A stretch of 64,000 bases of DNA from a virus, in IMG/VR virus record IMGVR_UViG_3300008735_000004, positions 6,649 to 70,648 of that record, one strand, 5' to 3'. The notes under the pieces were generated by a model. The model saw nothing but the letters and a program-made list of their open reading frames with translations. It was not told where the DNA came from and did not search any database. Of the stretch, positions 3,001 to 26,405 are shown piece after piece; the stretch's first letter is position 1; each line of letters opens with the position of its first letter. The position numbers were made by a program, and so were the translations under genes.

Positions 3001-6000
3001 ATATTGCAAGAAAGCATCTGGATTATCTTCATCTACCATCTTAGCCATATTAATTGCTAAAGTTCTTTTTTGTAATAGGGCAGCGGCTATTTGCATACCC
3101 ACTTCGTGTGTTTCATTTCCGATTTTAGCTAGTTGTGTTTCAAAAGTTAATGCTTTGGCTAGCGTTTCTTTATAACTATCCAGGTCCATGTTAAAATTTG
3201 CGAAAACTTCATAGGTAGCGCTAGCGCTTTTCTTTAATTCTTTTAAAGTCAAAGTTACATTAATATTCTTTGTCTTTGTTGCTAGCGTTTCATTAAGAGA
3301 AGCTGCATATACCATAGTAACTAAATAGTCTAGCATGGCTGCTCTAGACATTAAGTTTATTAAATTTACTTTGGTAATTCGTTTTAATTGCTCTACTCGT
3401 TGCATTTTTGGTAATGTTTTATCTTTTTCCCAAGTTTCAAGCTGGGAATGAGTAAGAACTACTGCTGTTTCTGGGGGTATATTACCTGTCCAATGAGCCT
3501 CAACATACTCAGTGGCCAAAGAATAGTTACTTCTTTGAGGTTCATTATTTTCATCAATCCAGTAATAAGTTCCAGCTATTCTATCAGAATCATCTCTAGG
3601 AAGAGTATCTGAGATTGTATTTCCTACTGTTTCTAGATCCCTTATCATAGCAGAAATATCTGTATATTTTTCTGATGTTTGGGGATCAATTGCGGTAGGT
3701 AAAAGCTTTCCCAAAGATTTACTAACTAACAATTTGTGCATTGCTTTTTGTACATTCATTTTTGCATCTGCATCTTCTGTACCATCTTCCCCAATAAATA
3801 ATGCTTTTAATCCTTTATATGATTCTAAAAACTTACCTGAAGAAATTGCTGCAAATTGTCCAAAAACTATAATTTTTAACTCTTCGGCTGCCTTACTCAT
3901 TTCAATAATTTCTAATTCAGGATCTTGATCTACAAAAGGAAATCCTGGTGAAATATAACGATGTCCCGTATTTGAATCAGAGTCTCTAGGTAATCTTAAG
4001 TCAGGATGTGTGTCTGTTACGGCTTCATTGATAGTTTTAATTAAGTCAGTATAGGTCGCATTAATATCAATTTTTTTGTTTATAGATTTGTTTTTTGTAT
4101 CATCTGCTTTATAATCTTCTAGTTTCTTTTTATTTTGATTTAAGATTGATAATCTTTCACCAATGTAGCTTTCATAGGTTGGTTCGTCTTCTTTTTGTTT
4201 TTTCAGTTTTACGGCGGTGTCTTCTATTTGTTTTATGACTCTGTCTACAAAAGTAAGAGATGAAATAGACTTATTAGGAAGTTTAATGTAGTAATCTAAA
4301 AATTGTCTAAAATCTTGTCTACGCAATAATCCAAAAAAGGATGTTTTAATTCTGTTAGAAAGTATTAAAAATTCTAAATATATAGGGTTATCCTCGTCAG
4401 ATTCAAAAGGTAAACCTACAATAGGATAAAAAGAAGGATTAGAATTCGTATATGTGAAAGCATCTGGCCGTGTTTTCATTAAATTAAAAAGAATACTAAA
4501 TACATTTTTTATGTAAGATGTATAATGTGCTTTTAAGGTTGAAGTTATACTAAATTTAATAGGATAATCTTTTCCAAAACCAGTAGGATCATCCTTTCTT
4601 TGCTGGTTTTCCCATTTTTGAACAGCATGCAGAATACCTGTTATATGTGCTTTTACGTCGGAATTGAGAACAGCATTAGCTAATTCTTTTGCTTCATTGT
4701 CTGCTGTATTTAGGTGTATAATTGGAACGGTTTCGGTACTGTCATCTAGTTCAATGTAAGCTGAAAGATAGTTAAATTTTTTACTAATTTTTTGATAATA
4801 GCTTTCATAAAACCGTTTTAAAGACATATTAGCGCTTACTAAGTTTGCGGCCCAACCATTATCATAATAGCCGTATTCAGATTTAACATAGAGGTGTTCT
4901 GGATTCCGCTCACCATTAGGACCCACATAGTCTCTTTTTGCTTGCCAATCTCGAATTAGTTTTACAAGATATTTTAATCTATTTTTATCTTTTTCATCCA
5001 TAAACTCTGGTAAATTCAAAATATTAAGAAGAGGCGTGGGAAAGAAATGCTGTGTTACATAGGGTAAATCCGATAGTTCGGGAATACTTAAAGGCTTAAG
5101 CTGTTCTAGTAATCTTAGATTTTGGGAATCTCCTAATAAATCAATGGAAACTTCCCACCAACCTGGGTAACCTTCTAAACTTCTAGAGCTTACATTTTGA
5201 ATAACACACTCGGTAAACCCTAAAGAATTTAATAAATGTCCTGAAAATGTTCCAACATTTGCCCCATTATAATTTCCTGATACTATTAATTTATCCATAC
5301 CCAGCAAAGAGGTTTCGCCAGCTAAGATCATAGAACCCACTTCTTGTATTGCTTCTTTCATATCAGTTAATATTTTATGAAAGCGTTCATCTCTAGTTCT
5401 GAAAGATAAACTAACTGATGGGTTGGAAATACCCATGTGCTGGAAGGTGGGCACCGTGCTGGAACTTAAATAGTGGGGTATTACATTATTTGCATAATTA
5501 TAGCTAATAGACTGTAATACAGTTTGAAATTGATATACGTAAGGATCTTTCTCATTCTTATCATAGTGTTGGTTTTGATTAATTAAATCATCTATATCTA
5601 CAGCAGATCCCAGCGCTCTTAAAGCCTTTTTTTGTTCTTCTGTTTTTGCAGAAAATATATCTGCATCTAAGGGAGGAACAGGATCACTCATCCAATTAAA
5701 TGTTAGATGTACTTTATCATAATTTAATAATGAGCTAAAATGGGAAAGTCCCAAAAAGCCTAAAGGATCCCTAGAAAGTTCCTCAAAGAGGGGACCTATA
5801 AAATTTTCTAAAGCAGAACCTATCTTTTTCCCGTCTTCACTAAGGATATCCTGTTCGGCTAATTTACCTAATCTGTCTAGAAACTCTTTACCTGCTGATT
5901 TTAATTCTAGGGTATCTGCTACCACAAAAATCTCATCCTCTAAGTTAATTGTAACTTCTTTTAGAACTGTTTGACCAGTTGTAGAATCTGGAATTTTTAA

Positions 6001-8322
6001 TGTAACTATTCCGTTATTTAAATCAGACGATTGTATATAATCTCCAAAAGTTTCATCCTGTATTCTGCTTCTTATCCAGGTACGTAAAGCATCATTCAAA
6101 CTATCCACAAAAAACGTTGCTTCTTTTGCGTAACTAACTGTTTTTGCTAATTCTAATAATATTTTTGAAATATCTGGTTTAGTGTTCACGTCTTGGTAAA
6201 GCTCTTTAAGCTTTCGCATACTATCAGAAGCGTCAGTACCTTGTAATTCTGCTAATACAGTTTTCATCAGGGTATATGCATGCCCTAATTTAGACATCCT
6301 AACTTTAAATAAACTTTGAGCTGTTTTAAAACCTTTAGGAGTATTATAAGTTAAGTATAGCTTATTATTATGTTCAGGTCTATATTTTGGCCAATATTTC
6401 TCTAAATCTCCATCATTCTCATTTTTAGTGGGCCTGCCCTCTCGTAGGCCTTTGTAAGTTGGAAAATCTCGTAAAACGTCTTTATATTGAATTTGAAATG
6501 GGATAGATTCTTGAGGATATCTTGTGACATAGGTTTCATCATCTACCTTGTAATTTTTATTACTATTTCCTATTTTAATTTCATGATACTTATTAACAGA
6601 ATCTAGAACAGATATAGTTGTAAAAGCATCTGATCTAGGATTGTTTGTATCTTTATCTAACTGATCATGAGCAGTGCTTACTATGGTATTATCTAAAGAA
6701 TATCTTAATGATTTTTCAATAGCGGATTCTTTGGCATCTTCCCATGATTTCCACATTTTAGGAACAACTCCATAAGGAAATCTATTCATTCTTACAATAG
6801 ATAGATGTGCTTGAATTGTATTAGGAAACCCAGGAAGAGTACTTAAGGATATATTTTCTAAATAAATAGCAATAGGCCCAAAACGTCGTTTTAAAACCTC
6901 TGCTTCATCTAGATCCTCCTCAGTTGCTTTTGTAAAGGTATTTTTTCTTCCAACCCAGGAGTCATAAATAGTAGTATTCTGAATTGTGGTAAATGGCATA
7001 CTTTGGAACATTGCGATAAGAGGTCTGAGCTGCTTATTAATAGCGTCTTCTCCCGAGAAATACAAAGTAAGATCTACTCTATTCATCTCATTATTTGTAG
7101 TTATTACCGGATCACCCTTAGTTCTAATGGTAGGAAGCGTCATTGCTTGGTTGGTGGAACTAAACCTTACAGATACGGGAGGAATGGTAAAATAAATATC
7201 TCCTATATACATTGATCCCGTTTCTTCTGCATTTTCTCCCCAAATATAAAAACGAGGATCATCAGTTTTAATTTCTGCTTTTCTTACTTTTTGTTGTACT
7301 TCCTCTCGTTTTTCTTGAGCAACTTCTGTCGCTTCTTTATAATTGTATTTTATAGCAGCCTTTGCTTCTTTTTTCCAAGTAGTAGGTTTAAATAAATGAG
7401 GTTTATTAAAGTTATCTATATTTAAAAGATTACGAATATCTTCTGTATTCCTAAAAACTCTTTTAAAGAAATGATCATTATTTGCTTTCTCCCATTTATC
7501 TTGTAAATAAAGAATAGAATCCGATATAAGCTGACTGTTTGTTATAGGAGTTTTAAAGATCTCAGATAAATTCTTGGGAGAAGGAGGAAGATCATCGTCA
7601 CTATAACAAATATATTGTAAATAGGTAATATCTAAGCTTGGATCATCTGGATGTACTTCATTATTTAATTGACTTATATCTGTATAATTAATCCAGCCGG
7701 TTGGGTTATTAATAATTATTTCTTCTAAAGAGTTAATAGACCTCTTCCGTAGTTTTTCTAAAACATATAAAGCAAAAAATAAATCCTGGACACTTTCATC
7801 AAAGTATTTTGGAAATTCTGATGATGATAAATTATATTTATAATTCGGATTTTCAGAATTAATAGACCCGGCTGTTATATCATTTTCTAACGCCTTAAGT
7901 AGATCAGAGTAAAATATGTCTAAATAATCTTTGCTATCTGGTAAGATAGTAGATATATAGTTAGAGAATATATAAAAGTTGATTGAAGAAAGCTGCTGCC
8001 AGCCTATATGATATTTACCGTAGTATTTATTGCAGGCTTGGGCCCCTTTAGCAGTATTAGCATTCCCGTTATTTTCCGACATTGCCTGTTTTGTCTTTAA
8101 AATATTAAACCAATTTTTATTTATATTAGAAACTGCAGCAGCAGTTTGCATAGCATTTAATAGTTTTATGTTATGCTCTGCTTTGCTGAAAGTAGGAACA
8201 TCTTCATTTGGAAAATGTTCTTTCCAAGCATTTTCCCTTTCATTTTTTTTCCAATCAGCATAATTTTTTTTAAGAACTTCTTCTACATAGTTTGCTATTG
8301 ATACATATTTTTTAGTAGCCAT
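1..8322 (-). CDS. Giant (>2774 aa) virion/baseplate hub-like protein, truncated at window edge
   Basis: ATG at 8322 (MATKKYVSIANY...). The frame is still open at nt 1 and the track lists no minus-strand ORF here, consistent with one ORF running off the edge. Hand translation shows two tube/Dit-like beta segments (~6780-7215, ~5130-5520) and gp27/late-control-D-like hub segments (LKIGTQIMILVGYG...FKGAITEI ~2500-2900; GTLTMLGNPHIKPWDQVFI...VEVEQVVNT ~420-600). Confidence 0.7.
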   Translation of the reverse strand, partial: MATKKYVSIANYVEEVLKKNYADWKKNERENAWKEHFPNEDVPTFSKAEHNIKLLNAMQTAAAVSNINKNWFNILKTKQAMSENNGNANTAKGAQACNKYYGKYHIGWQQLSSINFYIFSNYISTILPDSKDYLDIFYSDLLKALENDITAGSINSENPNYKYNLSSSEFPKYFDESVQDLFFALYVLEKLRKRSINSLEEIIINNPTGWINYTDISQLNNEVHPDDPSLDITYLQYICYSDDDLPPSPKNLSEIFKTPITNSQLISDSILYLQDKWEKANNDHFFKRVFRNTEDIRNLLNIDNFNKPHLFKPTTWKKEAKAAIKYNYKEATEVAQEKREEVQQKVRKAEIKTDDPRFYIWGENAEETGSMYIGDIYFTIPPVSVRFSSTNQAMTLPTIRTKGDPVITTNNEMNRVDLTLYFSGEDAINKQLRPLIAMFQSMPFTTIQNTTIYDSWVGRKNTFTKATEEDLDEAEVLKRRFGPIAIYLENISLSTLPGFPNTIQAHLSIVRMNRFPYGVVPKMWKSWEDAKESAIEKSLRYSLDNTIVSTAHDQLDKDTNNPRSDAFTTISVLDSVNKYHEIKIGNSNKNYKVDDETYVTRYPQESIPFQIQYKDVLRDFPTYKGLREGRPTKNENDGDLEKYWPKYRPEHNNKLYLTYNTPKGFKTAQSLFKVRMSKLGHAYTLMKTVLAELQGTDASDSMRKLKELYQDVNTKPDISKILLELAKTVSYAKEATFFVDSLNDALRTWIRSRIQDETFGDYIQSSDLNNGIVTLKIPDSTTGQTVLKEVTINLEDEIFVVADTLELKSAGKEFLDRLGKLAEQDILSEDGKKIGSALENFIGPLFEELSRDPLGFLGLSHFSSLLNYDKVHLTFNWMSDPVPPLDADIFSAKTEEQKKALRALGSAVDIDDLINQNQHYDKNEKDPYVYQFQTVLQSISYNYANNVIPHYLSSSTVPTFQHMGISNPSVSLSFRTRDERFHKILTDMKEAIQEVGSMILAGETSLLGMDKLIVSGNYNGANVGTFSGHLLNSLGFTECVIQNVSSRSLEGYPGWWEVSIDLLGDSQNLRLLEQLKPLSIPELSDLPYVTQHFFPTPLLNILNLPEFMDEKDKNRLKYLVKLIRDWQAKRDYVGPNGERNPEHLYVKSEYGYYDNGWAANLVSANMSLKRFYESYYQKISKKFNYLSAYIELDDSTETVPIIHLNTADNEAKELANAVLNSDVKAHITGILHAVQKWENQQRKDDPTGFGKDYPIKFSITSTLKAHYTSYIKNVFSILFNLMKTRPDAFTYTNSNPSFYPIVGLPFESDEDNPIYLEFLILSNRIKTSFFGLLRRQDFRQFLDYYIKLPNKSISSLTFVDRVIKQIEDTAVKLKKQKEDEPTYESYIGERLSILNQNKKKLEDYKADDTKNKSINKKIDINATYTDLIKTINEAVTDTHPDLRLPRDSDSNTGHRYISPGFPFVDQDPELEIIEMSKAAEELKIIVFGQFAAISSGKFLESYKGLKALFIGEDGTEDADAKMNVQKAMHKLLVSKSLGKLLPTAIDPQTSEKYTDISAMIRDLETVGNTISDTLPRDDSDRIAGTYYWIDENNEPQRSNYSLATEYVEAHWTGNIPPETAVVLTHSQLETWEKDKTLPKMQRVEQLKRITKVNLINLMSRAAMLDYLVTMVYAASLNETLATKTKNINVTLTLKELKKSASATYEVFANFNMDLDSYKETLAKALTFETQLAKIGNETHEVGMQIAAALLQKRTLAINMAKMVDEDNPDAFLQYFGVGDIDNAELKWEMLGKFNNYLQTKRKGTMDRAFPTFKIFFIEEDNYAWKAFDDFYSYDAASEISIVESKHAASKTAVLRLSNVTNVLTNDVFANLANEGSAAVSSYNLNLKIGTQIMILVGYGSDYRQLRMKFKGAITEINPGSVLEVTAQSWGAGLLNNVGAVGGVSYSSTSGATSLGAAVIDILAQTPGLSHLGRWQIRDEELNNPDKVAETSFKNAYWAKAISSLAGPLQDFNPIQSNFMDIIKNTPTTYEELQTSYRQNNVIVKSFGNSLYDNIIINNTRAHGYGFTNWFYRVWDEASSMFTDEAGFQWHVVRQSAWDALHEAALFLGDYIVTTLPFDEGNDIFLNPPRETLYFGPREGQYQASRYLPKINIEQQLKEIIDMHKISKPVKEELRTPEQEHSDSILLQIGKTILAKTLDVSWKYGNPCNRIGGIHMKPSEREKLLAGKSDYGWSSNTDLLSIFVRTLESNGWSKVADLIKKSVAPRGTEDVGTIISSDKITKTALHEILLNDFEGKHMSLSMQASKFQYSTEDLIISNDLVNGKITNYKGEGDNYTYHYPAHTVNNYSAVVSSSKQTFNALYNPGWGTASPFEEKHKEDLRSSFYYIFYSFKGTTLGAIMEPYFKNIFYNYLPNIDKAIVEDAYNQLIYYQENKKRGNLSKSTGVDMDIEAAISSLRGTTQIFQYKPVIGMHVVNSYEDILDNSIIATADQMYNHVEVLFDDEPDPTNNISNAKYRSQAWISYDQDPDYMRTYQTYMKNMDSHLFFNTFEANTYINNANSDAQQATMLTQHAIAQQVLMNVMKPMYQGTLTMLGNPHIKPWDQVFIHDDSIAMYGPVEVEQVVNTISATGGYTTTIIPNLCVTYKSASKQIDNLILSIQTTIQTMGFIGTILKHAASIGAVWFAMKPKMLSPKSGEVGGVIGRYLKKGAKDAAENLSTLKDFKKISKIEQIKKVAKGNLSGDDFTRIESVGDDFVKMRKKAKMLNKQLTITYKYI

Positions 8323-8329
8323 TTATAAA

Positions 8330-8524
8330 TTACCTATTAAGAATAGAGGGCTTGCGTAATTGTTTAAATACGCTAATTTTATCAGTAAAGTCTATGTCGT
8401 TTACATGTAAACGAACTTCTCCCTGTGTTATTTCAGATACAATCATCTGAAGATAACCAGATAGAGAAGAAATTTCATGATCATAGGGTACCGGCGGTAA
8501 ATCAACTTGAATCTTTATTTTCAT
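8330..8524 (-). CDS. Small hypothetical protein (64 aa)
   Basis: TAATG-coupled to the upstream 2994-aa gene and fills the gap to the next giant ORF. Confidence 0.6.
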   Translation of the reverse strand: MKIKIQVDLPPVPYDHEISSLSGYLQMIVSEITQGEVRLHVNDIDFTDKISVFKQLRKPSILNR

Positions 8525-11500
8525 TATCTTAGTAATATTCCGTTTACTTGTTTAGCCATTTGCTGTAAACTAAGTGCATCCTTTCTATGCTGCACTCTTG
8601 TATAATTTACCATTCCCGGTGGAGGGGGCGGCATGTGTTTATTCTCATAACCCGGTGCTCCACTAAAAGCAGGTAATCCAGCTAGCTTTGCCATTTTATC
8701 TAATAATACAGGTGAACTTTCTCTAAATCGTGTGAGCCTGTTTCTATAAGTTTTTCCTAACTCCTGTAGAGAAGGTATGTCATATCTTTCACCATCTGCT
8801 CGCTGATCTGGTAACAGAATCGAATTAGTATTCGGATCTAATATCATCATAGCCAAAGCAGCAACTCCCGCTCGTTTGGCCCACTTACCCTGTGCTACTC
8901 CATGAAGCATATCTCCTAAAAATTTAGAAGTTTGTTCAATAACTGTTCGTGAACTTACTGCCTCATCTGTAAAAGCCCTGCTAACCACATATTTAGCCAT
9001 ATCGTCTGCTGTTGAGATAGACATTGCATCTGCGCTTGATATACTTCCCTCGAAGGCATGCCCAATCCATGCTCTACTGCCTTGTGAAAAAGCATCCTGA
9101 AGAGCACCATAGACCCCAGCTTTGGGACCTCTACCAACTAAGAAGGATGTTATGTTACCATATATCAATTGATTGGCCTCCATTCTAGCGGCGGCTCCTT
9201 GTATTCGCCCTGCAATCTCTCCCATTTCAAAGAATAATTTTCTTTGCTTTTCTAGTTCAGCGGCTGCTCTTATTTTATTAGCATGTCCTTCTATGTAATC
9301 AGATTCTACATCCAGAAGTAAATTCTTTGCATTAGCATCTTCAGCTGACATTCCTCCCCATAACATCTTTAAGGCTTGTCCAAAGGTTCCTTTACCTTGT
9401 TGGTTAAAAAAGCCATAATGAAATTTTGTACGAGCCTCATAAGCTTGTTGGAATGATGCTAAAACACTGCTAGTAGCTGCTTTTTGTTTTTCAATAGGAA
9501 CATGGTGAGTATAGTTTGATAAAAATTTATTCATATAATCTAATCCAGTCATTTTAGATTTTACCCATTTTCCAACTATTTTTTCACCCGTTACAGGATC
9601 TATTCCATCCGCAACATAATATGATAAATTTGCATTTTTATTTAACTTTTCCCAACCTGTTTCAAGTTCTGTATGAAGTTTACGCGCATGTTTCCTAATA
9701 TAATCATAGTTGTAAGTTGTTTGACCATCTACCCCTGTTATAATTGCTTCTTTAGCACTAAACTCAGCGGAAACATCAGATAAAAAGTCTATGGTATTGC
9801 TGGCACTTTCTAATTTTCCTTTACCTGTTGCAATACTGCCTAATCTGTCTATAACGCTGGTTTTCATTCCAGAGGATTTTCCTCCCCCAAATAAAACATC
9901 CCATCGTTCTTGTTGTTTACCGACTGGGCCTACAAGTGTTTGCTGGATCATATAAAGAAGACCCCTATTACGCATTCCTGTTGCTGCTTCATCAGTAGTA
10001 ACTGTATTTACAAAACCTTCTAATTGAGAATTAGTTAAACGTTGGAATTCATCCTCTCCCATTTCTCCTAATAACCATCTTGATGCTAGATCCGGATCTT
10101 GTATTATTTTACCATAGTCTGTGCCGGAGTGTAGGAGAGAACCTCTTCCTTCTTTCATAGCCATCCAGCTTATGTTTTCTCGAATACGTGTAACTTCTTT
10201 TTGGATTCCTTTTTGTTGTTCTACTTTCCAAATACCTTTAGCGCGGTTTTTAAATTCTAATAAATCTGCCTTATTTCCGCTATTTTTTAATTCTTCTAAT
10301 TCTGTTAATTGGTTTAGTTTACTTTTATTTAACTCTCCTGATGCTTTAAGTTTCTGTAAATCTTTAAGCATCATATCCTCATCAACTCCTAGAGACGACG
10401 TTTCTAACATACGTTGTACAAGGTCACCATCATAGTCACCACCCATCAACGCAAGTTCTAATTGATTTACTGTTACTATTTTATCAATTTCTGCAGTTTT
10501 CATTCCAATCTTTTTAAATAATTCATCATGCCATAAGTAAGCTACAGAGTGATTCATAATTCCCTTGTTTTCAAACATGGGTTGTCTAGCTAATTCGTCA
10601 ATTACACGTCGTTTACCTGTGAGCATTTCAATCCAACGATCTACAGCAGATTTTGTTGTATTCCGAGACGCCTCAGTTGCTTCATGGGTAGTGTCTGTTA
10701 AACGACGCACTATATTCATCAAATCTTCGTCGGCGCTTTCGGCCATTACTTTAAGAGAGTTTGAAAACTGTCCAGTCGGCATTATACGTTCATTTAATCC
10801 AGTTCCTCGTGCATTATAAAATGAATGTCCATCGATACTTCTTAATAAATTTCCAATTGCATCTTTTGGTCTGCTTTTTGGTTTATTCATAATACCCTCT
10901 AAAACATCATCCATTTTAATATCTCTAGTGGCTTGGATCATTTTATCAAGAACAGCTTTCTGCCCTTTACCTGATCTCTTTTTAATTGCTTCCAGTGCCT
11001 CAACAATAGAATTTGAGCCCTCAAATTTTGATAGAGTTTTTCCAGCTAAATCACTTGCATCATTTGCTAGGGCTCCCATAATATTTTTAGCCAATACAAT
11101 AGAATTTACAGCTTTACCATATTGAGAACCTGCTGCGTAGAATTGATTTGCTTTCCAAGAATGAATATTAATTCCTTCATATACTAAGGAAGACAGCGGG
11201 GCTCCAATTCTTGCCATAGCATTTTCTATGCTACTTTTTATTGTACCTAAATTTTTGGCTCCTCCATTTTTTATGTCTTTTGCAATTCTAACTAGATCCT
11301 CGCTATAAACAGATATAGCATCAGCAATTTGTAAAGTTCTGCTAGATTGCGTACCCATAACATATTTATTATCTAATAATTGTGGTGCATCAGCTCTTAC
11401 AAAAGGGACCAGTATTCCATCCAAAGGTCCTGTAACATCATCAGCAAATCCTGGCATTTGTTTTAAATATACTTCTAGCATTTGTCTTTCTGCAGGATCA

Positions 11501-14500
11501 GTTGCCTTATCTTTTAATGTTTTCTTTATTTGACTTATTAACATTGACTTTTGTTTATTTTCGGCATCCTGCATTTGTCTTATAACACTGTCATCTATAC
11601 CCGCATCACCAAATACTTTTTCAATAGAAGGTAATTCGAATTTAAAAAGAGTATCCTGTTTAGTTTGAAATAGTTTTATTTTTTCAAAAGCCTCTTTGTC
11701 TATTAAACCAAGTTTACTTATCCGTTGGTTTTGTTTGTACCATTCTAATTCCTTTCCTAATTCTGTATCTTGTTTAATTAATTCATCCAACATACTAGCA
11801 TGTTTAGGATCTGTTACATCTATATTTTTGAAAACTTTATATTTCTTTACATCATGTTCTATGTCAGTTAAGCTATAGGTAGTGTGCAAACTTTTATCAA
11901 ATTCAAATCCATTTTTAAAAGTAAGCGAAGCCGCATAATAAGTTTTTAAAGCATTTTTTATATTTTGATGATGCTTGCCCATTTTTGGCAGTAATTGTCT
12001 AAATAAGTCTTTTCTAAACTGGTCATTTCCTTCGGTAGCATTATACATTAACATTACTTGCCAAATACTAAATGATTTATGTGTGGGAGTTCCATACATA
12101 TCTACAGCTAGCTTTCTTGGTCCTTTTATATCAGATAAAGTCTCAGATAATCCTAATTCCGTAGGCGTTAACCACGCCATAGCTTCTGTGTATACTCCGG
12201 CTGTTAATTTTCCCTGGATGCCTCCTTCTTGAAAGAGACCCTTAGATTTAAAAGTTTCCTCATCTAGTAGGCCTTTCTGTATTGTAGTATATGGATCAAA
12301 TAAAGCTATCTTAGTTTTTTTAACAATCCTGTTCATCTCATTTATAATGAGAGCTTTATCTGTAGCTTGAGTAGACGTACTTGCAGCAAGATCCCCAATT
12401 GCTTTCTCTTGTTGTTTAACTAAAATATCATATAAGGATTTAACTTGTTTTTCTAAAGTATCTTTACTAACTGTTCCTCCCAGTTTCTTGGAATAATCAA
12501 ATAAAGCTTCTGTGTTTATTTCAACAAACATTTTTTTCATAGAAGAGTGATCAACGCCACTAATCTCTAACATCTTAGCAACACCTTTAAATAACTCGTG
12601 ATTGGATGCATTTAGCTCTGAAGTTGATATTACTTCAGGTACATATATTGCTTTTCCAAACTGACTTGCTTGTTCTTTTGCCACTGGTGCTAGTTTTAAT
12701 TTAAACATTGAATCAAATTCCGCGTCGCTAATACTAAAGGATTCTTTAATTAATTTTTTAATTAATTTTTTCTGTTGGTTAGGATTTTTTCCATGAGCTT
12801 GGTAAATAGAATTTAAAGAACGTCTCATATGTATTTCAATCATATTTGTAATATTAGGCTTCTTAGCACCTAATATTGCTCCTATTCCTTTACCATAAGT
12901 AAAACCATGGCCTTCTCCGATACTATTACCCTTGAATAGTTTAGAAGGATCAACTAATTTATTAAAGCCAGACTCTTCTATTGGAGTAATATCGAATAAA
13001 AAAGTACCTTCATTGAAATCAAAAGCTAATTGTTTTACTATAGTATGTTGTTTAATAGGATGGCTGCTGCCATATTTTAATTCTTTTTCTAGTTTATATC
13101 TTTTTCCAGTACTAACGTCCCATACGGCTGCTGCCGTATCATCAACTTTTATTAAGGTGCTTCCTGGTTCTAAAATTGTTGCAGTAGATCCTTTTGTTCC
13201 TTTTTTTCCTACTAGATCTAATTTTAATATTCCGTCTGAGTCCATAGATTTAACAAAATCTTCTAAGGTCATACTGGCGTCTACGGAATCTACTATGGCA
13301 GAGTTTACACCTCTTGCGCGCAGCCATTCTCTCATATTTAACTTACGTGCTCTATAAGGTGGTTTTATTTCCGGACTATTTGCTGTCTTACTGGATTCTA
13401 GCATTTCTTTGGCCACTCTATCAAATACTTTTAATGTTTTACCAGAGCCTCCTAAAGGCATATGTTTAAATCCCTTAGCCATACCTGGAGCGAGCATTGC
13501 TGTATCTTCCCCTACTAAGGAGTTGTTACTGGGTAAATAGTAGGCCATCATCTGTAGTCTAGATTTAAATACTTCTTCATTTCCTCTTTCTAAGGACTGT
13601 CCCATTAACCAGTCTCTTGTGAACGTAGAGCGAAGCTGCGTCATCCACATAGAAAATCCAGTATCTGTATTAGCTATATCACTCAGAGAATGTCTTATAA
13701 TTGGAAAGAGGGATTTAGAAGCGCTAAGGCGGGCACCTCGTATTTCTGCACCTGTTCCAGGTATCAATGCCTTTTGGGATAAAACTTGATATGCTTGTTT
13801 TTGTAAATTAGCTTTATGCCCAAATGGTAAATAATTCTCTGGACCGAAAGCTGCCCCAATTCCTCGACCAGCTAGTCCTGGAGTAAACGCGAACAAATGG
13901 GAACGAAGAAGAGAAGGATCTCCAGCAGTACCCGCTTGGTTTAGTTGAAATAAGTCAGATTGTTCAGCAATTTGTAGGGGATTATACCACGCAAATTTTC
14001 TACCTGCTGTAATTTCTTCTGAAACAGTTCCAACTTGCATAATCTTATCATAGAGATAAGGATTATATTGTCGAATTTTTTCAGTTTTCCAATGCAATAA
14101 ATCATGTAACACTTTATTAGCCCTAGTATCAAATGCTGGATCATGGTGACCTCCTTCTCCAAAAGTTTGTACAACATTTTTCCAATCCTGCTGTACCCAT
14201 CTTTTAATGGAGCCCCTGAGATTAGCAGGGAGATCATCTATCATATGCTTAACGTTTTGGGTTAAACGTCCTCGTGATTTATTAACAGCAACGGATAGAT
14301 TTTTTGCCCAGTTTTTATGATCCATTTTTGGATCATCTACTGCTTCTTGAATTAGGCTTTCAAATAAGCTTGTTAAGTTTAAAGAAGTATGATCGGGGTT
14401 TCCAGTTTGTAATAGCCGTGCCCATGCGTATGTATCAATGATATTACCCTTTGCAATAAGAGTAGCATCAGTAGTATCATATATTAGGCGTTTTATTAAG

Positions 14501-17500
14501 TCATAATCCTTAGTACCTTCCTTCATATCCTTAAATACGCGCCTTGCTGCTTTATTAATTAGTTTTAAATCCGCAGTACCTACATTCTGACCTAACCAAG
14601 TTACTTGCTTGTCTAAAGCATCTGCTCCGTACATATCCTTAGCAAATTTTAACATTGAACTTTTTTCATTATAGAAGTGAGTAGTTTCCATTTTACCAGT
14701 TCTGGGATTGATTGCTTTTTGTGTAGAGATATCTACTCCTTTTTCAAAATCTTTCTGTGCTATAGAGAAACGCTTATCCATCCATTTATACCACTTAGTA
14801 TAACCGTCTTCCGCCGCTTCACCGCCGGGCTGGTGTTTTACCATGAATTCTGCAATATTATCTTTAATCAAAGACCAATTGTCTGGAACAATATAATGAT
14901 TTACTATTTTTTCTGGAGAACCTGATCCTTTGTTTAGTACATAGTTCATCCAATATATACGGGTTCTAGGATCCCTTATCATTTTAGTACTACCTTTTAC
15001 CTCGGTATATGGAGAACTAAACTCTAAGTCAAAAGATGCTAAGGTAGATTCTGTTTTGTTTATACTCATATCAGCTAATAAGGAACGCTTACCTAAGGCA
15101 TGCGATTTGTAGTAATAGCTTGATTTTTTACCAGAAAGAACCGCAAATTCTTCTGAAATAACTTTCATACCTCTTACTCGATCTTGTACGTGCTCAGTAG
15201 CTGTACCCGACAGATCTGTGTATTGACTTAACATTCTACTTATTTGTGTTTTAGCCTGATAAGGATCCCATCCAGAATCTACTAAGTCATTCATTATTTT
15301 ATTAGAACGCTCAAATAATTCATCTAGTTGTGCTAAACCTACACTTGAAGTATTACTTACAGAAGCATCTAAACCGGATCCTAGGATCATATTAGAGTTA
15401 TACAGTTTAGAGAAAGAGCTGGTTGAATATTGACCGAAACGTTCAAGGGATATGGATTGTTTTAATGTACTTTTTCCAGGTATTTTAATTTGTAATTCTG
15501 CGCGTTGATGGGCCATATTTCCGTGAAGATCTGTTTTAATTTCCATAGACACGTCAATACCGTCAATCATGTCCATGTATGCTGAAATATTATCCTCAAA
15601 GCCCACTGATTTAGCTAATATTTTTAATTGTTCAATTGCAGCGGCTCCTTTTGACCCACTTCTTTGAGAATTATTAAATAAAAGTTTTGCATTATTTTTT
15701 ATTTCTTGTACTTTAGTTTCAAAAGCTGTAAGCACTTTAGATAGTTTTTCAGCTTGCCTAGCAGTACCATAAGCGGAATCATGTAATGCTTCTTGTCCTA
15801 CAGATTTAAATATATCTTTATAAAGACGCTGTCTGCCCCTTAGTCTTTTTTCAAAAGACTTTAAATCTCCTATTCGATGTTTATCTGCTTCGGATAGGCC
15901 TGCCGTATAATCTTCTATAGTGGTTTTAAAGAGAGCAGTTAGCTGCTCAGGAGATGAAGTATTACTGGCTTTTATAATAGATCTGCCTTGCGGATTAAAA
16001 TCAGCGCCAGTTATATTTTTATAAAAAGCCTCAGCAGTCCATTTGCTTGTTTTATCATTCATTTTTTGTCCTATCGCAATAGGATCATTTAATCGTGAAT
16101 TTATTATATCTTTGATTCTTTCACTGGTAAATCTTTCTGATGAGAATTCCGAATCTCCCACCTTTTGGGCAAGAAGTATTCTGATTTCCCGTACTGTATC
16201 AAAATAAGAAGGATCATCGATTTTGTTTATAAACTTAATAAACTCTTTATCAGACATTGTTTTTAAATTTAATGATTTTTCTCCTAATTTATGTGTGTAT
16301 CTATTATCTACAAATTCATCAACAAGCTCTACAACTTGTCTTAGAGTTTTCCATTTTTTAACAGCAAAAAGGGGTTCATGCATTTTATTAACTTTATCAT
16401 AATGTTTTCCTGTTTCCATTTGAGCTTGGGCATATTTTTTTGCTATTTCATATGCTTGATCCTTTTTACTTTCAATGTCCTCCATTATATTCTTCTTAAT
16501 ACCTTTTCTTATTGCGTGTCGTCTTGTATCTTTACCTAAGCGTAAATTAGTTAATTCTCCAATACTGGTATCTACTGCTCTTGACATTTGTATTAAGTCA
16601 GAATCTCCGCTTTTTATTAAGTCATCTTTTAAACCTTTTAATGCGTCTATGTGGTCTTGATAAGTATATCTTCCTTTATGTGTGCCTCCTTTTAAATGGT
16701 TTAATAAATATTTTTTTGCAGTATTATTTTTTTGCCAAGTATTCCAAATAGCCCATCGCTGTTTACTAATTTCTGTTAGTTCTCTATTCTGCCTAACTGA
16801 AATTAGTAATCTTATATTTATTTTTTCATCACGTAAAGGATCAATCCATGCGAGTTTTCCTGCATTCTCACCAGTTATCCAACCTATTTGAGTTAGTCCT
16901 CTGTCCTCCATTGCTTCTTGTAAGCCTGTCTTAAAAAATTGTATTCTTTTATTATCTGCTATTAATTGTTCTGCTGCTTCTATTTCTTGTAATTTTTTTA
17001 CAGAAAATAGTCCTTTAGTGTTTACTAAACCATCTACTGCCGTTAAAGCTTCATCATATAATGTATTAATTTTTCCTATGGCATAACTATTATCTCTTAT
17101 TATTTCAGGAAGAATATGTCGATTAAGGTTTCCTTTTTTAAGCTCAGCCGCCTCTCGTAACATATCAGGAATATCCGCTCCTATTTCTTTTCCTGATCCT
17201 TTCTGAACTAGTTTACCTAATGTGCTTTCTTCTTGTACTTCAATGGCGTGCTGTATGGCTCGTCCGCCAGACATTGAATCAAATATTGGATTATTTCTAG
17301 CCTCAGCATAGAGGTTTTTTAAAGATTCAATAAAAGCATCTTTAAAACCTATGGCTGTTCCTCGTTTTATCCACTGATGCTGAGCTTCTACAATACCCAG
17401 AATAGAGGGTAAAGCAACAAAGGCAGATAAGCTTTTAGCCTTCCGTTTAGTATTCTTTTTTGTAGGAGAAAATAAAGGTTCTGGTTTTATGTCTTTAATT

Positions 17501-17508
17501 CGTGCCAT
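8524..17508 (-). CDS. Putative virion single-chain two-barrel RNA polymerase with embedded DEDDh exonuclease (2994 aa)
   Basis: Beta'-like motifs: RQP (aa 2308) and MGGDYDGD (D2358-D2362). Beta-like motifs: GEDTAML (E1334/D1335) and NKLV...FKG (K1517/K1526). Exonuclease motifs: FDLEF (D827/E829), GQNVGTADL, IIDT, HDPAFD (H1122/D1127). Confidence 0.75.
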   Translation of the reverse strand: MARIKDIKPEPLFSPTKKNTKRKAKSLSAFVALPSILGIVEAQHQWIKRGTAIGFKDAFIESLKNLYAEARNNPIFDSMSGGRAIQHAIEVQEESTLGKLVQKGSGKEIGADIPDMLREAAELKKGNLNRHILPEIIRDNSYAIGKINTLYDEALTAVDGLVNTKGLFSVKKLQEIEAAEQLIADNKRIQFFKTGLQEAMEDRGLTQIGWITGENAGKLAWIDPLRDEKINIRLLISVRQNRELTEISKQRWAIWNTWQKNNTAKKYLLNHLKGGTHKGRYTYQDHIDALKGLKDDLIKSGDSDLIQMSRAVDTSIGELTNLRLGKDTRRHAIRKGIKKNIMEDIESKKDQAYEIAKKYAQAQMETGKHYDKVNKMHEPLFAVKKWKTLRQVVELVDEFVDNRYTHKLGEKSLNLKTMSDKEFIKFINKIDDPSYFDTVREIRILLAQKVGDSEFSSERFTSERIKDIINSRLNDPIAIGQKMNDKTSKWTAEAFYKNITGADFNPQGRSIIKASNTSSPEQLTALFKTTIEDYTAGLSEADKHRIGDLKSFEKRLRGRQRLYKDIFKSVGQEALHDSAYGTARQAEKLSKVLTAFETKVQEIKNNAKLLFNNSQRSGSKGAAAIEQLKILAKSVGFEDNISAYMDMIDGIDVSMEIKTDLHGNMAHQRAELQIKIPGKSTLKQSISLERFGQYSTSSFSKLYNSNMILGSGLDASVSNTSSVGLAQLDELFERSNKIMNDLVDSGWDPYQAKTQISRMLSQYTDLSGTATEHVQDRVRGMKVISEEFAVLSGKKSSYYYKSHALGKRSLLADMSINKTESTLASFDLEFSSPYTEVKGSTKMIRDPRTRIYWMNYVLNKGSGSPEKIVNHYIVPDNWSLIKDNIAEFMVKHQPGGEAAEDGYTKWYKWMDKRFSIAQKDFEKGVDISTQKAINPRTGKMETTHFYNEKSSMLKFAKDMYGADALDKQVTWLGQNVGTADLKLINKAARRVFKDMKEGTKDYDLIKRLIYDTTDATLIAKGNIIDTYAWARLLQTGNPDHTSLNLTSLFESLIQEAVDDPKMDHKNWAKNLSVAVNKSRGRLTQNVKHMIDDLPANLRGSIKRWVQQDWKNVVQTFGEGGHHDPAFDTRANKVLHDLLHWKTEKIRQYNPYLYDKIMQVGTVSEEITAGRKFAWYNPLQIAEQSDLFQLNQAGTAGDPSLLRSHLFAFTPGLAGRGIGAAFGPENYLPFGHKANLQKQAYQVLSQKALIPGTGAEIRGARLSASKSLFPIIRHSLSDIANTDTGFSMWMTQLRSTFTRDWLMGQSLERGNEEVFKSRLQMMAYYLPSNNSLVGEDTAMLAPGMAKGFKHMPLGGSGKTLKVFDRVAKEMLESSKTANSPEIKPPYRARKLNMREWLRARGVNSAIVDSVDASMTLEDFVKSMDSDGILKLDLVGKKGTKGSTATILEPGSTLIKVDDTAAAVWDVSTGKRYKLEKELKYGSSHPIKQHTIVKQLAFDFNEGTFLFDITPIEESGFNKLVDPSKLFKGNSIGEGHGFTYGKGIGAILGAKKPNITNMIEIHMRRSLNSIYQAHGKNPNQQKKLIKKLIKESFSISDAEFDSMFKLKLAPVAKEQASQFGKAIYVPEVISTSELNASNHELFKGVAKMLEISGVDHSSMKKMFVEINTEALFDYSKKLGGTVSKDTLEKQVKSLYDILVKQQEKAIGDLAASTSTQATDKALIINEMNRIVKKTKIALFDPYTTIQKGLLDEETFKSKGLFQEGGIQGKLTAGVYTEAMAWLTPTELGLSETLSDIKGPRKLAVDMYGTPTHKSFSIWQVMLMYNATEGNDQFRKDLFRQLLPKMGKHHQNIKNALKTYYAASLTFKNGFEFDKSLHTTYSLTDIEHDVKKYKVFKNIDVTDPKHASMLDELIKQDTELGKELEWYKQNQRISKLGLIDKEAFEKIKLFQTKQDTLFKFELPSIEKVFGDAGIDDSVIRQMQDAENKQKSMLISQIKKTLKDKATDPAERQMLEVYLKQMPGFADDVTGPLDGILVPFVRADAPQLLDNKYVMGTQSSRTLQIADAISVYSEDLVRIAKDIKNGGAKNLGTIKSSIENAMARIGAPLSSLVYEGINIHSWKANQFYAAGSQYGKAVNSIVLAKNIMGALANDASDLAGKTLSKFEGSNSIVEALEAIKKRSGKGQKAVLDKMIQATRDIKMDDVLEGIMNKPKSRPKDAIGNLLRSIDGHSFYNARGTGLNERIMPTGQFSNSLKVMAESADEDLMNIVRRLTDTTHEATEASRNTTKSAVDRWIEMLTGKRRVIDELARQPMFENKGIMNHSVAYLWHDELFKKIGMKTAEIDKIVTVNQLELALMGGDYDGDLVQRMLETSSLGVDEDMMLKDLQKLKASGELNKSKLNQLTELEELKNSGNKADLLEFKNRAKGIWKVEQQKGIQKEVTRIRENISWMAMKEGRGSLLHSGTDYGKIIQDPDLASRWLLGEMGEDEFQRLTNSQLEGFVNTVTTDEAATGMRNRGLLYMIQQTLVGPVGKQQERWDVLFGGGKSSGMKTSVIDRLGSIATGKGKLESASNTIDFLSDVSAEFSAKEAIITGVDGQTTYNYDYIRKHARKLHTELETGWEKLNKNANLSYYVADGIDPVTGEKIVGKWVKSKMTGLDYMNKFLSNYTHHVPIEKQKAATSSVLASFQQAYEARTKFHYGFFNQQGKGTFGQALKMLWGGMSAEDANAKNLLLDVESDYIEGHANKIRAAAELEKQRKLFFEMGEIAGRIQGAAARMEANQLIYGNITSFLVGRGPKAGVYGALQDAFSQGSRAWIGHAFEGSISSADAMSISTADDMAKYVVSRAFTDEAVSSRTVIEQTSKFLGDMLHGVAQGKWAKRAGVAALAMMILDPNTNSILLPDQRADGERYDIPSLQELGKTYRNRLTRFRESSPVLLDKMAKLAGLPAFSGAPGYENKHMPPPPPGMVNYTRVQHRKDALSLQQMAKQVNGILLR

Positions 17509-20500
17509 AATAATCTTCTATTATATTTTTTGCAGACGTTCGTTTGACATTTAAAGTTATTTCAACTTCTGTTGAAAGTGACGGCATACTGCTTACACTT
17601 ACATTAGCTCCATTATATCCCATTCTTGTTAATACTTTTTGTATAGCATCCCTAATTTCTGGACCACTCATATCAGTTCTTAACTGAGGAGTACTTCCCT
17701 CTGCATTGATGTTGAGAGGTTGTATATCAAAGTGGCTACTTTTTATTCTATTTAATTGTTGTCTCCATCCCATTCCAAAGTCATGAGCATTCATTCCGTA
17801 ATCTTCTACGGTAACCATCTGGATATCTTCTTGTTCTACCGTAGGATCCATTACAGGATTTAAAGCAGAGGGCATTCTCTTGTTAGAAAAATAACTGTCT
17901 AAAGTGGGCAGATTAACATCTTCACCCCGTCCCCACATCATTTTTAACATATCTCCCATTTGAGAATCTACCCTTCTTAGAACTTTTTCCTGCTCATCTG
18001 CTTCAGTAGTTTCTACTAGTGCTGACCAGAAGGGCCTATCCCATGAAGGTAGAGCGGAGTATCCCTTATAAAAAGCTGTATTATACAAACGGGCAGTACG
18101 TTCATCAGAGCCCTGCCAAGGAGAACCAAATCCTCTATCAGACCCAACTCCATAAAAAGCTGGGTTATTGGTTCTTCTTAATGCTGAGTTTTGTGCAGAA
18201 GCCTCTGCTTCTATTTTAGCTTGACTTTGTTGCATATAATCCAACCAACCGTGCTGAGTTTTTTGCATTTGTTTACGATATTGCTCATCCTGTGTAGCTC
18301 TATACATTTGCATCGCTCTGGAATATTCTAATTTATCAAAATATTCTTGCATTTCTACGCGTTCTTGGAAGCTGCCGGGTCGATATTCGGAATCTGACAT
18401 AGCTCGATGTAGTCCGTGTGCTCCCCCATAAACAGCACCTATAACAGTACCAGCGACTGCTCCGGGTAGTCCCCCCAACAAAGCACCTCCCGTACCAAAA
18501 CTTAGCGCTCCTTGTAGGGGATCAGAAGCTGCTGCTAAACCCCGTCCCCATGGTTTAACAAAACTTTCTACTGGAGTAGTCCAACTTGCAAAATCTCCGC
18601 GGATCATCATATCTTCATATTTTTCCATCGGAGAATAGGCACCAATTAATTTAGTATGAATAGGACTCCTTTTATGAGTTAAAGTTTCCCAGGCAGATCC
18701 GGCGATTCTTTCTACTAAATTGTATTGATCAGCGGGTAAAATAAAGGGGTTAAGAGATAAATCATCAGGATATTCATCATCTGGATTTAATAATTCAGAT
18801 ACTTGAAATCTACGAGGATACATTTCATATTTACGTAAAATAGTTTTATGCTGTTTTTGTAGAATACTAAATTCTTCTTCTTCTTGCGGCGTTACATAAC
18901 CATCAGCAACTTGTTCTTCTAATAATTGAGATGTTTCTCTATACTCTTTCGAGTAAGGAGCAGCATTCATCAAGACACGTAAACGGTCTATATAGGAATA
19001 AGCTTCATTAGCATATCCATAACCTTGTTGTAAATACTCCTGCGCTAAGTGCCTAGCTTCATGCAGGTTCGCCTTAGTTCGTGACCATAAATCTGGGTCA
19101 AATCTTACTGCGAATTCTTTTGTTTGTGTTGGATCTTCCCTGGATACGTATAAAAATTTACCTTGACTAACGCCCATAGTTGCCATATAACTATTTAACT
19201 GTACTCTGTGTTTCCATTTAGGTTGTTCTAAATTAGCAAAGCCTTTGCCTCCTATCGATTTAATTTCTAATGGAAGCTCCTGTTGAGTACGAAGATCTCT
19301 ATACATTACATCAACATACGATCTTATGTTTTCAGCCGGGTCTGAAATTAATGCCTCTACGCGGGATGCTGCCCCTGTTGACATAAGTTGGTTTTGTACC
19401 ATTGCATGAATAGCACTACCTTCTTCTAATATCTCTTCTTGATCTAAAGTCATATGCCCTAATCCAATCATACTCATAGCCTGTTCATAGGGATTATAAC
19501 CTAAACGAGACATACCAACAGGAAAATCCAATTCGGGATTAAAGAAATTCTCATAGGCATCTCCCGGTAATAGAAGTTCTCCGTGTGCGATTTTACTATT
19601 ATGTACAGCAGCACCAGGAAGGGAGTAAGTACCAGGTTCTCCCATATCAATAGTATATACTAGACCTTTGTAATGCTCTTTTTCAATAGAAGCTATTTCT
19701 AGCATTGCAATGGGAGCATGTTTTATTGTTTCAAACGCTCCATCAAAAGTTGTCTGCATTTCTGTTTTAGATTTTATATCTAATAAACCCATTTCATAAG
19801 CAAGTTCTGCCGCATCGTTTCCACTAATATATAGAGCGGTTTCATCTATTTTTGAAGCAATTCTGTGTTGTAATAAAGAGCTCCAAATTACATATGCTGC
19901 ATTTTTACTATGGAATCTAAAAACAATTTTATCTTTATCCGTTTCAGATTGAACAATAAATGCTTTAATATAGTTTAAAAGAATATATAAGTCTGAGGTA
20001 CGTAAATGGGGTGGAACTCCTGTGTACTGCAGGTACTTTATAGTTTCAAATAATTTAACATGCTCAGCATAATATGTTTTTATTTCTTGTTGAATTTCTA
20101 CAGGAGTTTCTTTTCTAAACTTCAAAGAATTATTAGAAGGAATAATCCAGCGTGTCATTAGTCCTAATATATAACTATTTAGACCGGTGAGCTTTACTTG
20201 CTCTTTTTCTGAAACTTCAAAGACAGCAGGTAGTTCAATATCTAGTAAAGGATAAGATGTTTTATCGGTTACAGCTAAATCTTTTGCAAATTTCCAATCT
20301 CCATCTATGTAAAATGGATGTCCTCCAGTTGTTTTTAATGGAAAGTCTTCTAAACCTTTAATTGTTATTTTATAAATTTCTTCGTCAACAGGCCTTGTAC
20401 TAAGTTTGTTTACAGGATGATAATGCCCATTAAGAGTTCTGAGTAACATTGTTTCTTCAACTTGGTCTGCTCTTATTAAACCTTCATTAGTTTCTACCAG

Positions 20501-25937: not shown

Positions 25938-26405
25938 TTACACTATTGGTGTAAATTCTCTTGCAACGAAATGTAGTACTTCCACTACATTCTCAGCTGA
26001 TGGATGTATAGTATGATTTCTTGAAATAATATTTACACCATCTATTGTGTATCCTTTCTGATGCTCTTCAAAATCATAGAAAGAACCAGGATCATTGTCC
26101 TTTTCGAAGCCTTCATTTTTCATGTTAATTAGTAATGAAAGTTCTTCATTCATGAAATCAGGCAAGGTTTTATCGTTTGTTAAATTTAATACCAGTGTTC
26201 CTTGTACTAAGCCTGTGCCTCGCATTACAGTGCTATACTCATGCTCATGTGTCTTATTTCCCTTTATATCAGCACGTGTGGCCGCGTGGCTATAGATAGG
26301 GGATGCTGTTTGATTTATACTAAATTGTATGTCCACTGCATCTAATTGTTTTACGGGGGTTGGATAGTATACATAAATATCTACGTCTATTCCTGAGAAA
26401 TACAT
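25938..26405 (-). CDS. Tail tube-like paralogue (155 aa)
   Basis: YFSGIDV, SPIYS and LVQGTLVLN match the tube pattern FSGSD...RPIF...VAGSVV. Ends HFVARE, versus TYVARH in the tube. Confidence 0.6.
   Translation of the reverse strand: MYFSGIDVDIYVYYPTPVKQLDAVDIQFSINQTASPIYSHAATRADIKGNKTHEHEYSTVMRGTGLVQGTLVLNLTNDKTLPDFMNEELSLLINMKNEGFEKDNDPGSFYDFEEHQKGYTIDGVNIISRNHTIHPSAENVVEVLHFVAREFTPIV

Follow-up and report, generated by a model that had tools for sequence, protein, structure and literature searches.

The DNA analysed here is a window of 64,000 nucleotides (nt), corresponding to bases 6649-70648 of the linear virus record IMGVR_UViG_3300008735_000004, which has 70,648 bases and a CheckV completeness of 37%. 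The gene of interest, P0001, appears in the open reading frame (ORF) listing of the window as an uninterrupted ORF with an ATG start on the minus strand; it encodes a multi-domain protein of 2994 amino acids (aa) and about 340 kDa within the tail module (Table 1). An initial annotation had read P0001 as a single-chain two-barrel RNA polymerase with a built-in DEDDh exonuclease, encoded at the tape-measure locus of a myovirus; translation of 8524-17508 confirmed the ORF, the eight motifs quoted there and all residue numbers. All genes are on the minus strand, in the order large terminase, portal, major capsid protein and tail sheath, followed by a tube-like protein of 200 aa, a giant of 2259 aa, four small ORFs, three back-to-back giants (2451 aa, P0001 and 2976 aa), two small genes and baseplate J. 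As genes for a sheath and for baseplate J are present, the phage is contractile-tailed, and the assignment to a myovirus holds.

From N- to C-terminus, P0001 would consist of a conserved N-terminal segment, some 700 aa with no assigned fold, the exonuclease, the polymerase core and a conserved C-terminal segment. The ATG start is supported by the N-terminal pattern MA[RK]I.DI, which is conserved among homologues. The conservation profile reaches 0.56 and 0.42 in aa 1-100, compared with about 0.25 for aa 101-500, and aa 1-100 may represent a virion-incorporation or ejection element. The first ~50 and the last 145 residues are among the best-conserved parts of the protein and match no family; the C-terminal segment is also the sole part of the most distant relative (L009) that tblastn matched. 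Both conserved ends are candidate signals for placement in the tail. Searches of Pfam and PHROGs with the whole protein and with four pieces of it, at E up to 10, returned sub-threshold noise only, including no Pfam peptidase match. We also considered, and dropped, a membrane-anchored tape measure, as no 19-aa window of P0001 has a Kyte-Doolittle mean above 1.5.

Table 1. Features of P0001 and of neighbouring tail genes, in window coordinates
Feature	Position	Strand	Remarks
Whole P0001 gene	8524..17508	-	2994 aa; first 14 nt shared with the end of the upstream giant
Conserved N-terminal segment, aa 1-100	17209..17508	-	conservation profile and invariant columns
Predicted DnaQ-like DEDDh 3'-5' exonuclease domain, aa ~815-1150	14059..15066	-	
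ExoI FDLEF (D827, E829)	15019..15033	-	end of model strand 1; DxE 15/15
ExoII GQNVGTAD (N975, D980)	14569..14592	-	start of helix after strand 4
ExoIII HHDPAFD (H1122-x4-D1127)	14128..14148	-	start of last long helix; 16/17; local pLDDT ~53
Beta-like block, aa ~1222-1565: LPFG..NLQKQ, P.N....GED, K1517-x8-K1526-G, LGAKKPNI..MIEIH, MRR	12814..13845	-	register with E. coli RpoB, z 1.7 and 2.0
Clamp-like domain, aa ~1866-2132 (resembles N-terminal clamp of RNA polymerase largest subunits)	11113..11913	-	
Beta'-like block, aa ~2298-2366: R2308-x-P2310 ... GGD2358-Y-D2360-G-D2362-L; putative metal-binding barrel	10411..10617	-	
C-terminal segment, aa 2850-2994, highly conserved (DPNTNS..LPDQR..GER.DIPS)	8527..8961	-	conservation profile, invariant columns
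Tail sheath gene	34464..36824	-	phrog_16991, E 4e-29
Upstream giant, 2451 aa, with Cas4/PD-(D/E)XK-type nuclease at aa 1783-1936 (nt 19043-19504)	17495..24850	-	phrog_1706, E 7e-14
Downstream giant, 2976 aa, with phrog_20474 'endolysin' domain at aa 2464-2659	1..8322	-	extends 605 nt past the window start

Relatives of P0001 are few. Three were found in an index of 5.8 billion proteins, and a search of 1.84 billion cluster representatives gave 14 proteins with E of 0.001 or below, P0001 among them; none of these is annotated, and their long members have 2729-2968 aa. Contigs of 93-133 kb are available for this phage group. With tblastn, P0001 had no match at 1e-5 among 50,697 GenBank phage records. 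A locus search of three collections with a 4-sequence alignment yielded no relative, and one with an 8-sequence alignment recovered four IMG/VR loci and 12 metagenome loci. The conservation counts given below are from a MAFFT alignment of 18 homologues that are 18-55% identical to P0001, with only those rows counted that cover a given site; the motifs remain unchanged, or almost so, in 15-18 homologues, with identity as low as 18-25%.

The exonuclease domain

We modelled aa 790-1199 with AlphaFold2 on an 11-row alignment (predicted local distance difference test, pLDDT, 71.3; predicted template modelling score, pTM, 0.71). The modelled domain has the DnaQ/RNase H-like fold of DEDDh exonucleases, with ~75 aa, forming two helices and a beta-hairpin, inserted between its helix A and strand 4. 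Its motifs lie at the canonical places in the secondary structure, with low confidence (~53) for the ExoIII stretch, and the motif IIDT (D1025) ends strand 5. ExoI DxE, ExoII D and ExoIII H-x4-D are all present (D827, E829, D980, H1122 and D1127). Across the homologues, DxE is kept in 15/15, the ExoII Asp and D1025 each in 17/17 and HH-x3-[FY]D in 16/17, and the ExoII Asn (N975) is kept in 12 of 17.

ESM Atlas features of this region fell into phage 3'-5' exonuclease clusters (0.90). Among the other rows of evidence for the domain, a further 22 are DNA polymerases, which carry such an exonuclease domain, and one is uncharacterised. By its modelled fold, the placement of the motifs in the model and the conservation of the catalytic residues, aa ~815-1150 is a DEDDh 3'-5' exonuclease, as the initial annotation had proposed. 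We take the domain to be under purifying selection and therefore probably catalytically active. Sequence comparison did not recover it: there was no match to the Pfam families RNase_T or DNA_pol_A_exo1, even at E up to 10, and hhalign against E. coli DnaQ gave z 0.08 in the wrong register, with 16 of 40 shuffles scoring as well. A homologous-protein search for shorter relatives of aa 790-1199 found none.

Enzymes of the epsilon, RNase T and TREX1 type have H-x4-D (DEDDh), as P0001 does, and polymerases of families A and B have DEDDy. P0001 shares the placement of DxE, D and H-x4-D with the known DEDDh exonucleases (Pol III epsilon, RNase T, ExoI, TREX1, CBASS Cap18 and Cas2-DEDDh). It differs from them in an ExoII motif of the form N-x4-D rather than N-x3-D, in the ~75-aa insertion and in that the domain is embedded in so long a chain.

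The only deviant row in the alignment is L009, the most distant protein (18% identical). This protein of 2634 aa (L009:2579-10507, plus strand) retains DxE, the ExoII Asp, RxP and ADFDGDIGY. As aligned, it lacks the ExoIII HH and the NLQKQ and ED motifs, and it is either misaligned there or a variant with an altered exonuclease.

The polymerase-like region

Seven motifs resembling those of the RNA polymerase beta and beta' subunits follow the exonuclease in canonical order, and their key residues are invariant in 16-18 of 17-18 homologues. In the beta-like block, GEDTAML carries E1334 and D1335, and NKLVDPSKLFKG carries K1517, K1523 and K1526; in the beta'-like block, LARQPMF carries R2308 and P2310 and is followed 50 aa later by GGDYDGDL (D2358, D2360 and D2362). 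The pattern N/Q-[LIV]-[QL]-K-Q (K1237-Q1238) and D1335 are each kept in 16/17 homologues, and K1517, K1526, R1563, R-x-P and D[FYL]DGD each in 18/18, the last also in the fragments P0010, P0014 and P0016. The order beta then beta', described in the initial annotation, and the conservation of DYDGD are real features of the 18-homologue alignment, and the conserved motifs in this family are more than chance. The column of E1334 has Gln in 4/17 homologues (P0005, L006, L011 and L013), with the Asp beside it retained; if ED corresponds to the E813/D814 pair of beta, only the Asp would therefore be essential in the P0001 family.

The motif D2358-Y-D2360-G-D2362 presents the metal-binding triad (DxDxD/DxDGD) of the two-barrel superfamily. 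No other ORF of at least 100 aa on the 70.6-kb contig contains D[FY]DGD, and a scan with a looser pattern gave one further match, the acidic run DFDVD in a 126-aa stop-to-stop frame. The corresponding motif of L009, ADFDGDIGY, is close to ADYDGDIGY of gp64 of phage P23-45, a proven phage RNA polymerase.

Unguided best hhalign paths brought several of these motifs into register with those of cellular RNA polymerase. LPFG..NLQKQ was aligned with IPF..NMQRQ, LP.N....ED with MP.N....ED and LGAKKPNI..MIEIH with LGVPSRMNIGQILETH, all of E. coli RpoB, and RxP..G-DYDGD-L was aligned with the corresponding elements of RpoC and gp64 (RRP..ADYDGD). The profile of the putative metal-binding barrel (barrel A) beat all 30 shuffles against RpoC (z 4.1), gp64 (z 4.4) and gp96 of P23-45 (z 5.2). 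The K-x8-KG pattern of K1517/K1526 resembles GDK-x7-KG of E. coli RpoB and is matched by motif only, as the hhalign path for the lysine block aligned the LGAKKPN segment that follows and not these two lysines. For the bridge helix, the best path between aa 2440-2720 and RpoC 720-960 pairs HVPIEK..VL..F..AR with TPITAN..VL..F..AR, yet at z -0.2.

A blind structural search added a result that had not been predicted, a beta'-clamp-like domain between the two motif blocks. RNA polymerase clamp regions made up all of the top five rows, and 50 of 50 rows in a second look; no other fold family was recovered for the domain in between. All clamp matches map between the beta-like and the beta'-like motifs, where a beta-beta' fusion would put the clamp. 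The order of elements agrees with that of the multisubunit beta/beta' core, including its split forms in phiKZ and AR9 (NMQRQ, ED, K..KG, SRMN, clamp, RxP, DFDGD). P0001 differs from that core in being one chain, in its large helical inserts and in matching no Pfam Rpb1/Rpb2 family.

Several results weigh against a polymerase, and against the wider interpretation of P0001 given below. Structure prediction of the barrels had been set beforehand as a test; the AlphaFold2 model of aa 1200-2399 was poor (mean pLDDT 54.7, pTM 0.35), with pLDDT below 50 in both motif regions, no fold readable around DYDGD, no double-psi barrel seen there and helices drawn where barrel strands are expected. Foldseek gave nothing at E up to 0.001, either for this model against PDB and BFVD or for the exonuclease model against PDB; of 46 weak rows, eight were chains of RNA polymerase complexes, all at E >1. 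The barrel regions were barely covered by the Foldseek and blind fold searches, and no barrel match was obtained there.

Sequence searches were likewise negative. P0001 matched no polymerase in Pfam, PHROGs or PDB sequences; phmmer and profile searches against PDB sequences gave nothing, or dynactin at E 0.26; and a hidden Markov model (HMM) of barrel A had 13 matches in PDB, all hydroxynitrile lyases (E 0.13-1.6). The hhalign probabilities against the single sequences of gp66 (the virion polymerase of phage phi14:2), gp96, gp64, RpoB, RpoC and DnaQ were all at most 13%. The beta-like blocks did weakly against shuffles (z 1.3, 1.7 and 2.0, with 4/40, 1/40 and 1/40 shuffles as good), and the barrel-A z-scores depend in large part on DxDGD, the motif for which the protein was selected. 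Sequence alignment recovered neither the clamp (z 0.7) nor the bridge helix (17/30 shuffles as good), and the comparison with phi14:2 gp66 gave z 0.6 (6/30 shuffles). In the ESM Atlas, aa 2270-2720 fell into unnamed viral clusters only (0.86), with recognition below the mark. PF00623 had no match on the contig, while 14/14 control genomes matched, and no early genes lie on this 37%-complete fragment. A complex prediction for aa 1195-1600, aa 2270-2720 and Mg, made without controls, scored 0.09 against a mark of 0.32 and counts neither for nor against. Profile similarity is not, however, a strict criterion of membership, since many families of the two-barrel superfamily have no significant similarity to one another beyond the DxDxD region (PMC10770324).

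These negative results are what one would expect if P0001 were an ejected or tail-associated multi-enzyme protein of the polyvalent type, with a real exonuclease and no polymerase, in which DYDGD and the other motifs belonged to some other metal-binding or structural domain: no profile or HMM method finds a polymerase, the model has no barrel and the beta-like shuffle tests are weak. Such a protein would have to account for seven beta/beta'-like motifs in canonical order with near-invariant key residues, for an intervening domain that matches the RNA polymerase clamp alone in 50/50 rows, and for RxP and DYDGD standing in register with gp64, and we consider it quite unlikely. It is likely, in our judgement, that P0001 carries a single-chain two-barrel RNA polymerase core. 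Of what the initial annotation said on this point, the ordered and conserved motifs stand, and a significant profile link to any polymerase family was not obtained; because the model of aa 1200-2399 is poor and no HMM or profile search finds a polymerase, the RNA polymerase is probable but unproven.

The exonuclease, being DEDDh and not DEDDy as in polymerases of families A and B, also bears on whether the two barrels could instead make DNA, in a DNA polymerase or primase with PolD-like chemistry and a proofreading exonuclease that served end repair or priming on the entering genome. We regard this as very improbable, since the motifs and the clamp match RNA polymerase beta and beta' and the tail-module position fits a virion polymerase; its precedent is the two-barrel core of PolD, which makes DNA (PMC10770324, PMC7708050). 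The P0001 core looks closer to the beta/beta' lineage than to the gp96 or gp66 families, and P0001 is a member of neither of these.

The tail module and probable delivery

P0001 lies between sheath/tube and baseplate and so occupies the expected tape-measure slot. The designation "tape-measure locus" in the initial annotation is nevertheless only partly right, because P0001 is the middle one of three giants that share this slot, in an order kept in nine distant loci. No tape-measure family was matched by any of the three, and the downstream giant, a candidate tape measure or tail lysin, is at least as good a tape-measure candidate as P0001. We dropped the possibility that P0001 is a paralogue of the other giants, as blastp among the four giants gave no match at 1e-2.

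In each of the nine loci with both flanks (L006, L007, L008, L012, L013, L015, L017, L020 and L009), the homologue stands between two giants (9/9). Neighbours were checked in two of these loci: in L006, where the homologue is 33% identical to P0001, the Cas4-like nuclease is again present in the upstream giant, and the downstream giants of both L006 and L009 have the phrog_20474 domain, followed in L009 by a baseplate wedge gene. The three-giant module has thus persisted in phages with P0001 homologues of no more than 18-33% identity.

Gene position by itself is weak evidence of delivery, and with three giants in the slot the tape measure may be a protein other than P0001. P0001 could be a genuine two-barrel RNA polymerase with an exonuclease that is made late and acts in the infected cell, or else no more than a structural tail protein with enzyme domains acting in assembly. 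We think both improbable, given that the gene sits inside the tail operon with a 14-nt overlap with the upstream giant, that the order giant, P0001 homologue, giant, baseplate is retained at such low identity, that the ends of the protein are among its best-conserved parts and that the two characterised examples of a tail- or virion-encoded two-barrel polymerase are delivered enzymes.

Several further observations concern the neighbourhood. Between P0001 and the downstream giant, an ORF of ~64 aa (8329-8523, minus strand) takes up the gap, and related loci have a gap of similar size there (~170-340 nt). The upstream giant has intein/HINT matches at aa 1471-1751 that are below the Pfam cut-offs (E 0.0025 and 0.014). 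The 200-aa gene after the sheath (33743-34345, minus strand) matches phrog_9206 (E 3e-38), as do the N-terminus of the 2259-aa giant (26893-33672, minus strand; E 1e-18) and, weakly, a 162-aa gene (26405-26893, minus strand). Although labelled 'major head protein', phrog_9206 is probably a tail tube family, judging by gene position; if so, the 2259-aa giant would therefore be a tube-like domain with ~2000 further residues. Finally, TGACATATCT with at most one mismatch occurs at 17 sites in the window (e.g. 25431, 34450, 61935 and 63558, minus strand) compared with 6.2 ± 2.6 expected, a number reached in 0/100 shuffles. The coding (minus) strand has eleven of the 17, among them all four exact matches, and the element is a possible phage promoter element.

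Proposed role and related systems

We propose that P0001 is a tail-delivered exonuclease and two-barrel RNA polymerase for host-independent first transcription, a reading to which, delivery included, we assign a probability of roughly 0.65; the phage probably enters the host equipped with a transcription enzyme of its own. P0001 would be built into the tail or the tube lumen together with its two giant neighbours and expelled into the cell on tail contraction. With no need of the host polymerase, it would then transcribe the first genes of the incoming phage DNA. For delivery and early transcription we rely on gene position and on the analogy with P23-45 gp96 and phi14:2 gp66.

For the exonuclease we favour a role at the 3' ends of nucleic acids, exercised jointly with the polymerase. 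Such coupled action is suggested by the strict co-conservation of the two and by the conserved neighbouring giant with the PD-(D/E)XK nuclease. Within this 3'-end reading, we rank first, and tentatively, resection of the entering DNA end by the exonuclease, exposing a single-stranded template. Trimming or rescue of the nascent RNA 3' end ranks second and an attack on host or defence nucleic acids third, both of them doubtful and to a similar degree, and other roles make up the remainder. A more elaborate scheme, which we think rather unlikely, has the exonuclease coupled to the polymerase and the PD-(D/E)XK, exonuclease-polymerase and lysin giants forming one ejected machine, in which the nucleases would cut and resect DNA to give a promoter-free start on a single-stranded template, or in which the DEDDh domain would be a 3'-end editing nuclease for a DNA-dependent RNA polymerase. 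To our knowledge, a true 3'-end editing nuclease is so far known only for viral RNA replicases.

One parallel named in the initial annotation, gp96 of the Thermus phage P23-45, is indeed a tape-measure-fused virion two-barrel RNA polymerase (PDB 8H2M and 8H2N; PMC10770324). It has DFDGD at 779-783 in a flat, clamp-less polymerase that is followed by membrane and metallopeptidase domains (PMC10770324). Like P0001, it is a giant encoded in the tail module and has a metal motif of the DFDGD type, and it gave the best barrel-A z-score against the P0001 profile (0/30 shuffles as good); gp96 is delivered and transcribes pre-early genes, a likeness that we extend to P0001 by inference. The two differ in that the tail of P23-45 is non-contractile and the polymerase of gp96 N-terminal, whereas the P0001 phage is contractile-tailed and its polymerase part central. 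Unlike gp96, P0001 has a seemingly clamp-like domain, and it lacks a Pfam peptidase match or a strongly hydrophobic 19-aa window. In gp96 the polymerase is inside the tape measure itself, and P0001 shares the stretch from tube to baseplate with two other giants, of which the downstream one has a lysin-type domain. No counterpart of the P0001 exonuclease is mentioned for gp96 in the available part of PMC10770324, and the two proteins have no significant sequence similarity (hhalign probability 5%).

The second parallel, gp66 of the crAss-like Cellulophaga phage phi14:2, is a virion polymerase of 2180 aa (bioRxiv 10.1101/2020.03.07.982082) with a structure in PDB (6VR4, as cited in PMC10770324). 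As the initial annotation said, it is a fused virion RNA polymerase; its motif is, however, DFDID and not the DxDGD ascribed to it, crAss-like virion polymerases having I or V at the fourth motif position (bioRxiv 10.1101/2020.03.07.982082), in contrast to the invariant Gly of the P0001 family (18/18). Both gp66 and P0001 are giant single-chain two-barrel proteins, the latter by our reading, flanked by other giant genes, which in the case of gp66 encode virion proteins. The gp66 phage is a podovirus-type crAss virus and the P0001 phage is contractile-tailed; hhalign detected no similarity between the two proteins, and the word 'exonuclease' is absent from the accessible portion of the gp66 preprint.

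Polyvalent proteins of phages and conjugative elements, compared here by description only, are likewise multi-enzyme proteins of very large size that presumably enter the host along with the DNA; modifying and signal-degrading domains, and no polymerase core, are described for them in the part of PMC7824862 at hand. Our literature search found no fusion of an exonuclease with a two-barrel RNA polymerase, and none is described in the available parts of PMC11348598 or PMC7824862; Supplementary Data 3 and 4 of PMC10770324 (family alignments and a viral gene survey) may list the family.

Experimental proof of two-barrel RNA polymerases delivered by the virion exists for only a few phage groups, namely the phiKZ/AR9-type phages, the crAss-like phages and P23-45. 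The P0001 family would add uncultured contractile-tailed phages with genomes of ~95 kb or more, in which the tail-module polymerase is always accompanied by an intact DEDDh exonuclease and two giant partners. P0001 also shows how much enzymology is hidden in "hypothetical" giant tail proteins, unseen by domain databases. If active, it would give studies of the minimal cellular-type core a compact single-chain polymerase of apparently beta-beta'-like layout, and would raise the new question of what role a 3'-5' exonuclease plays for an injected transcription enzyme.

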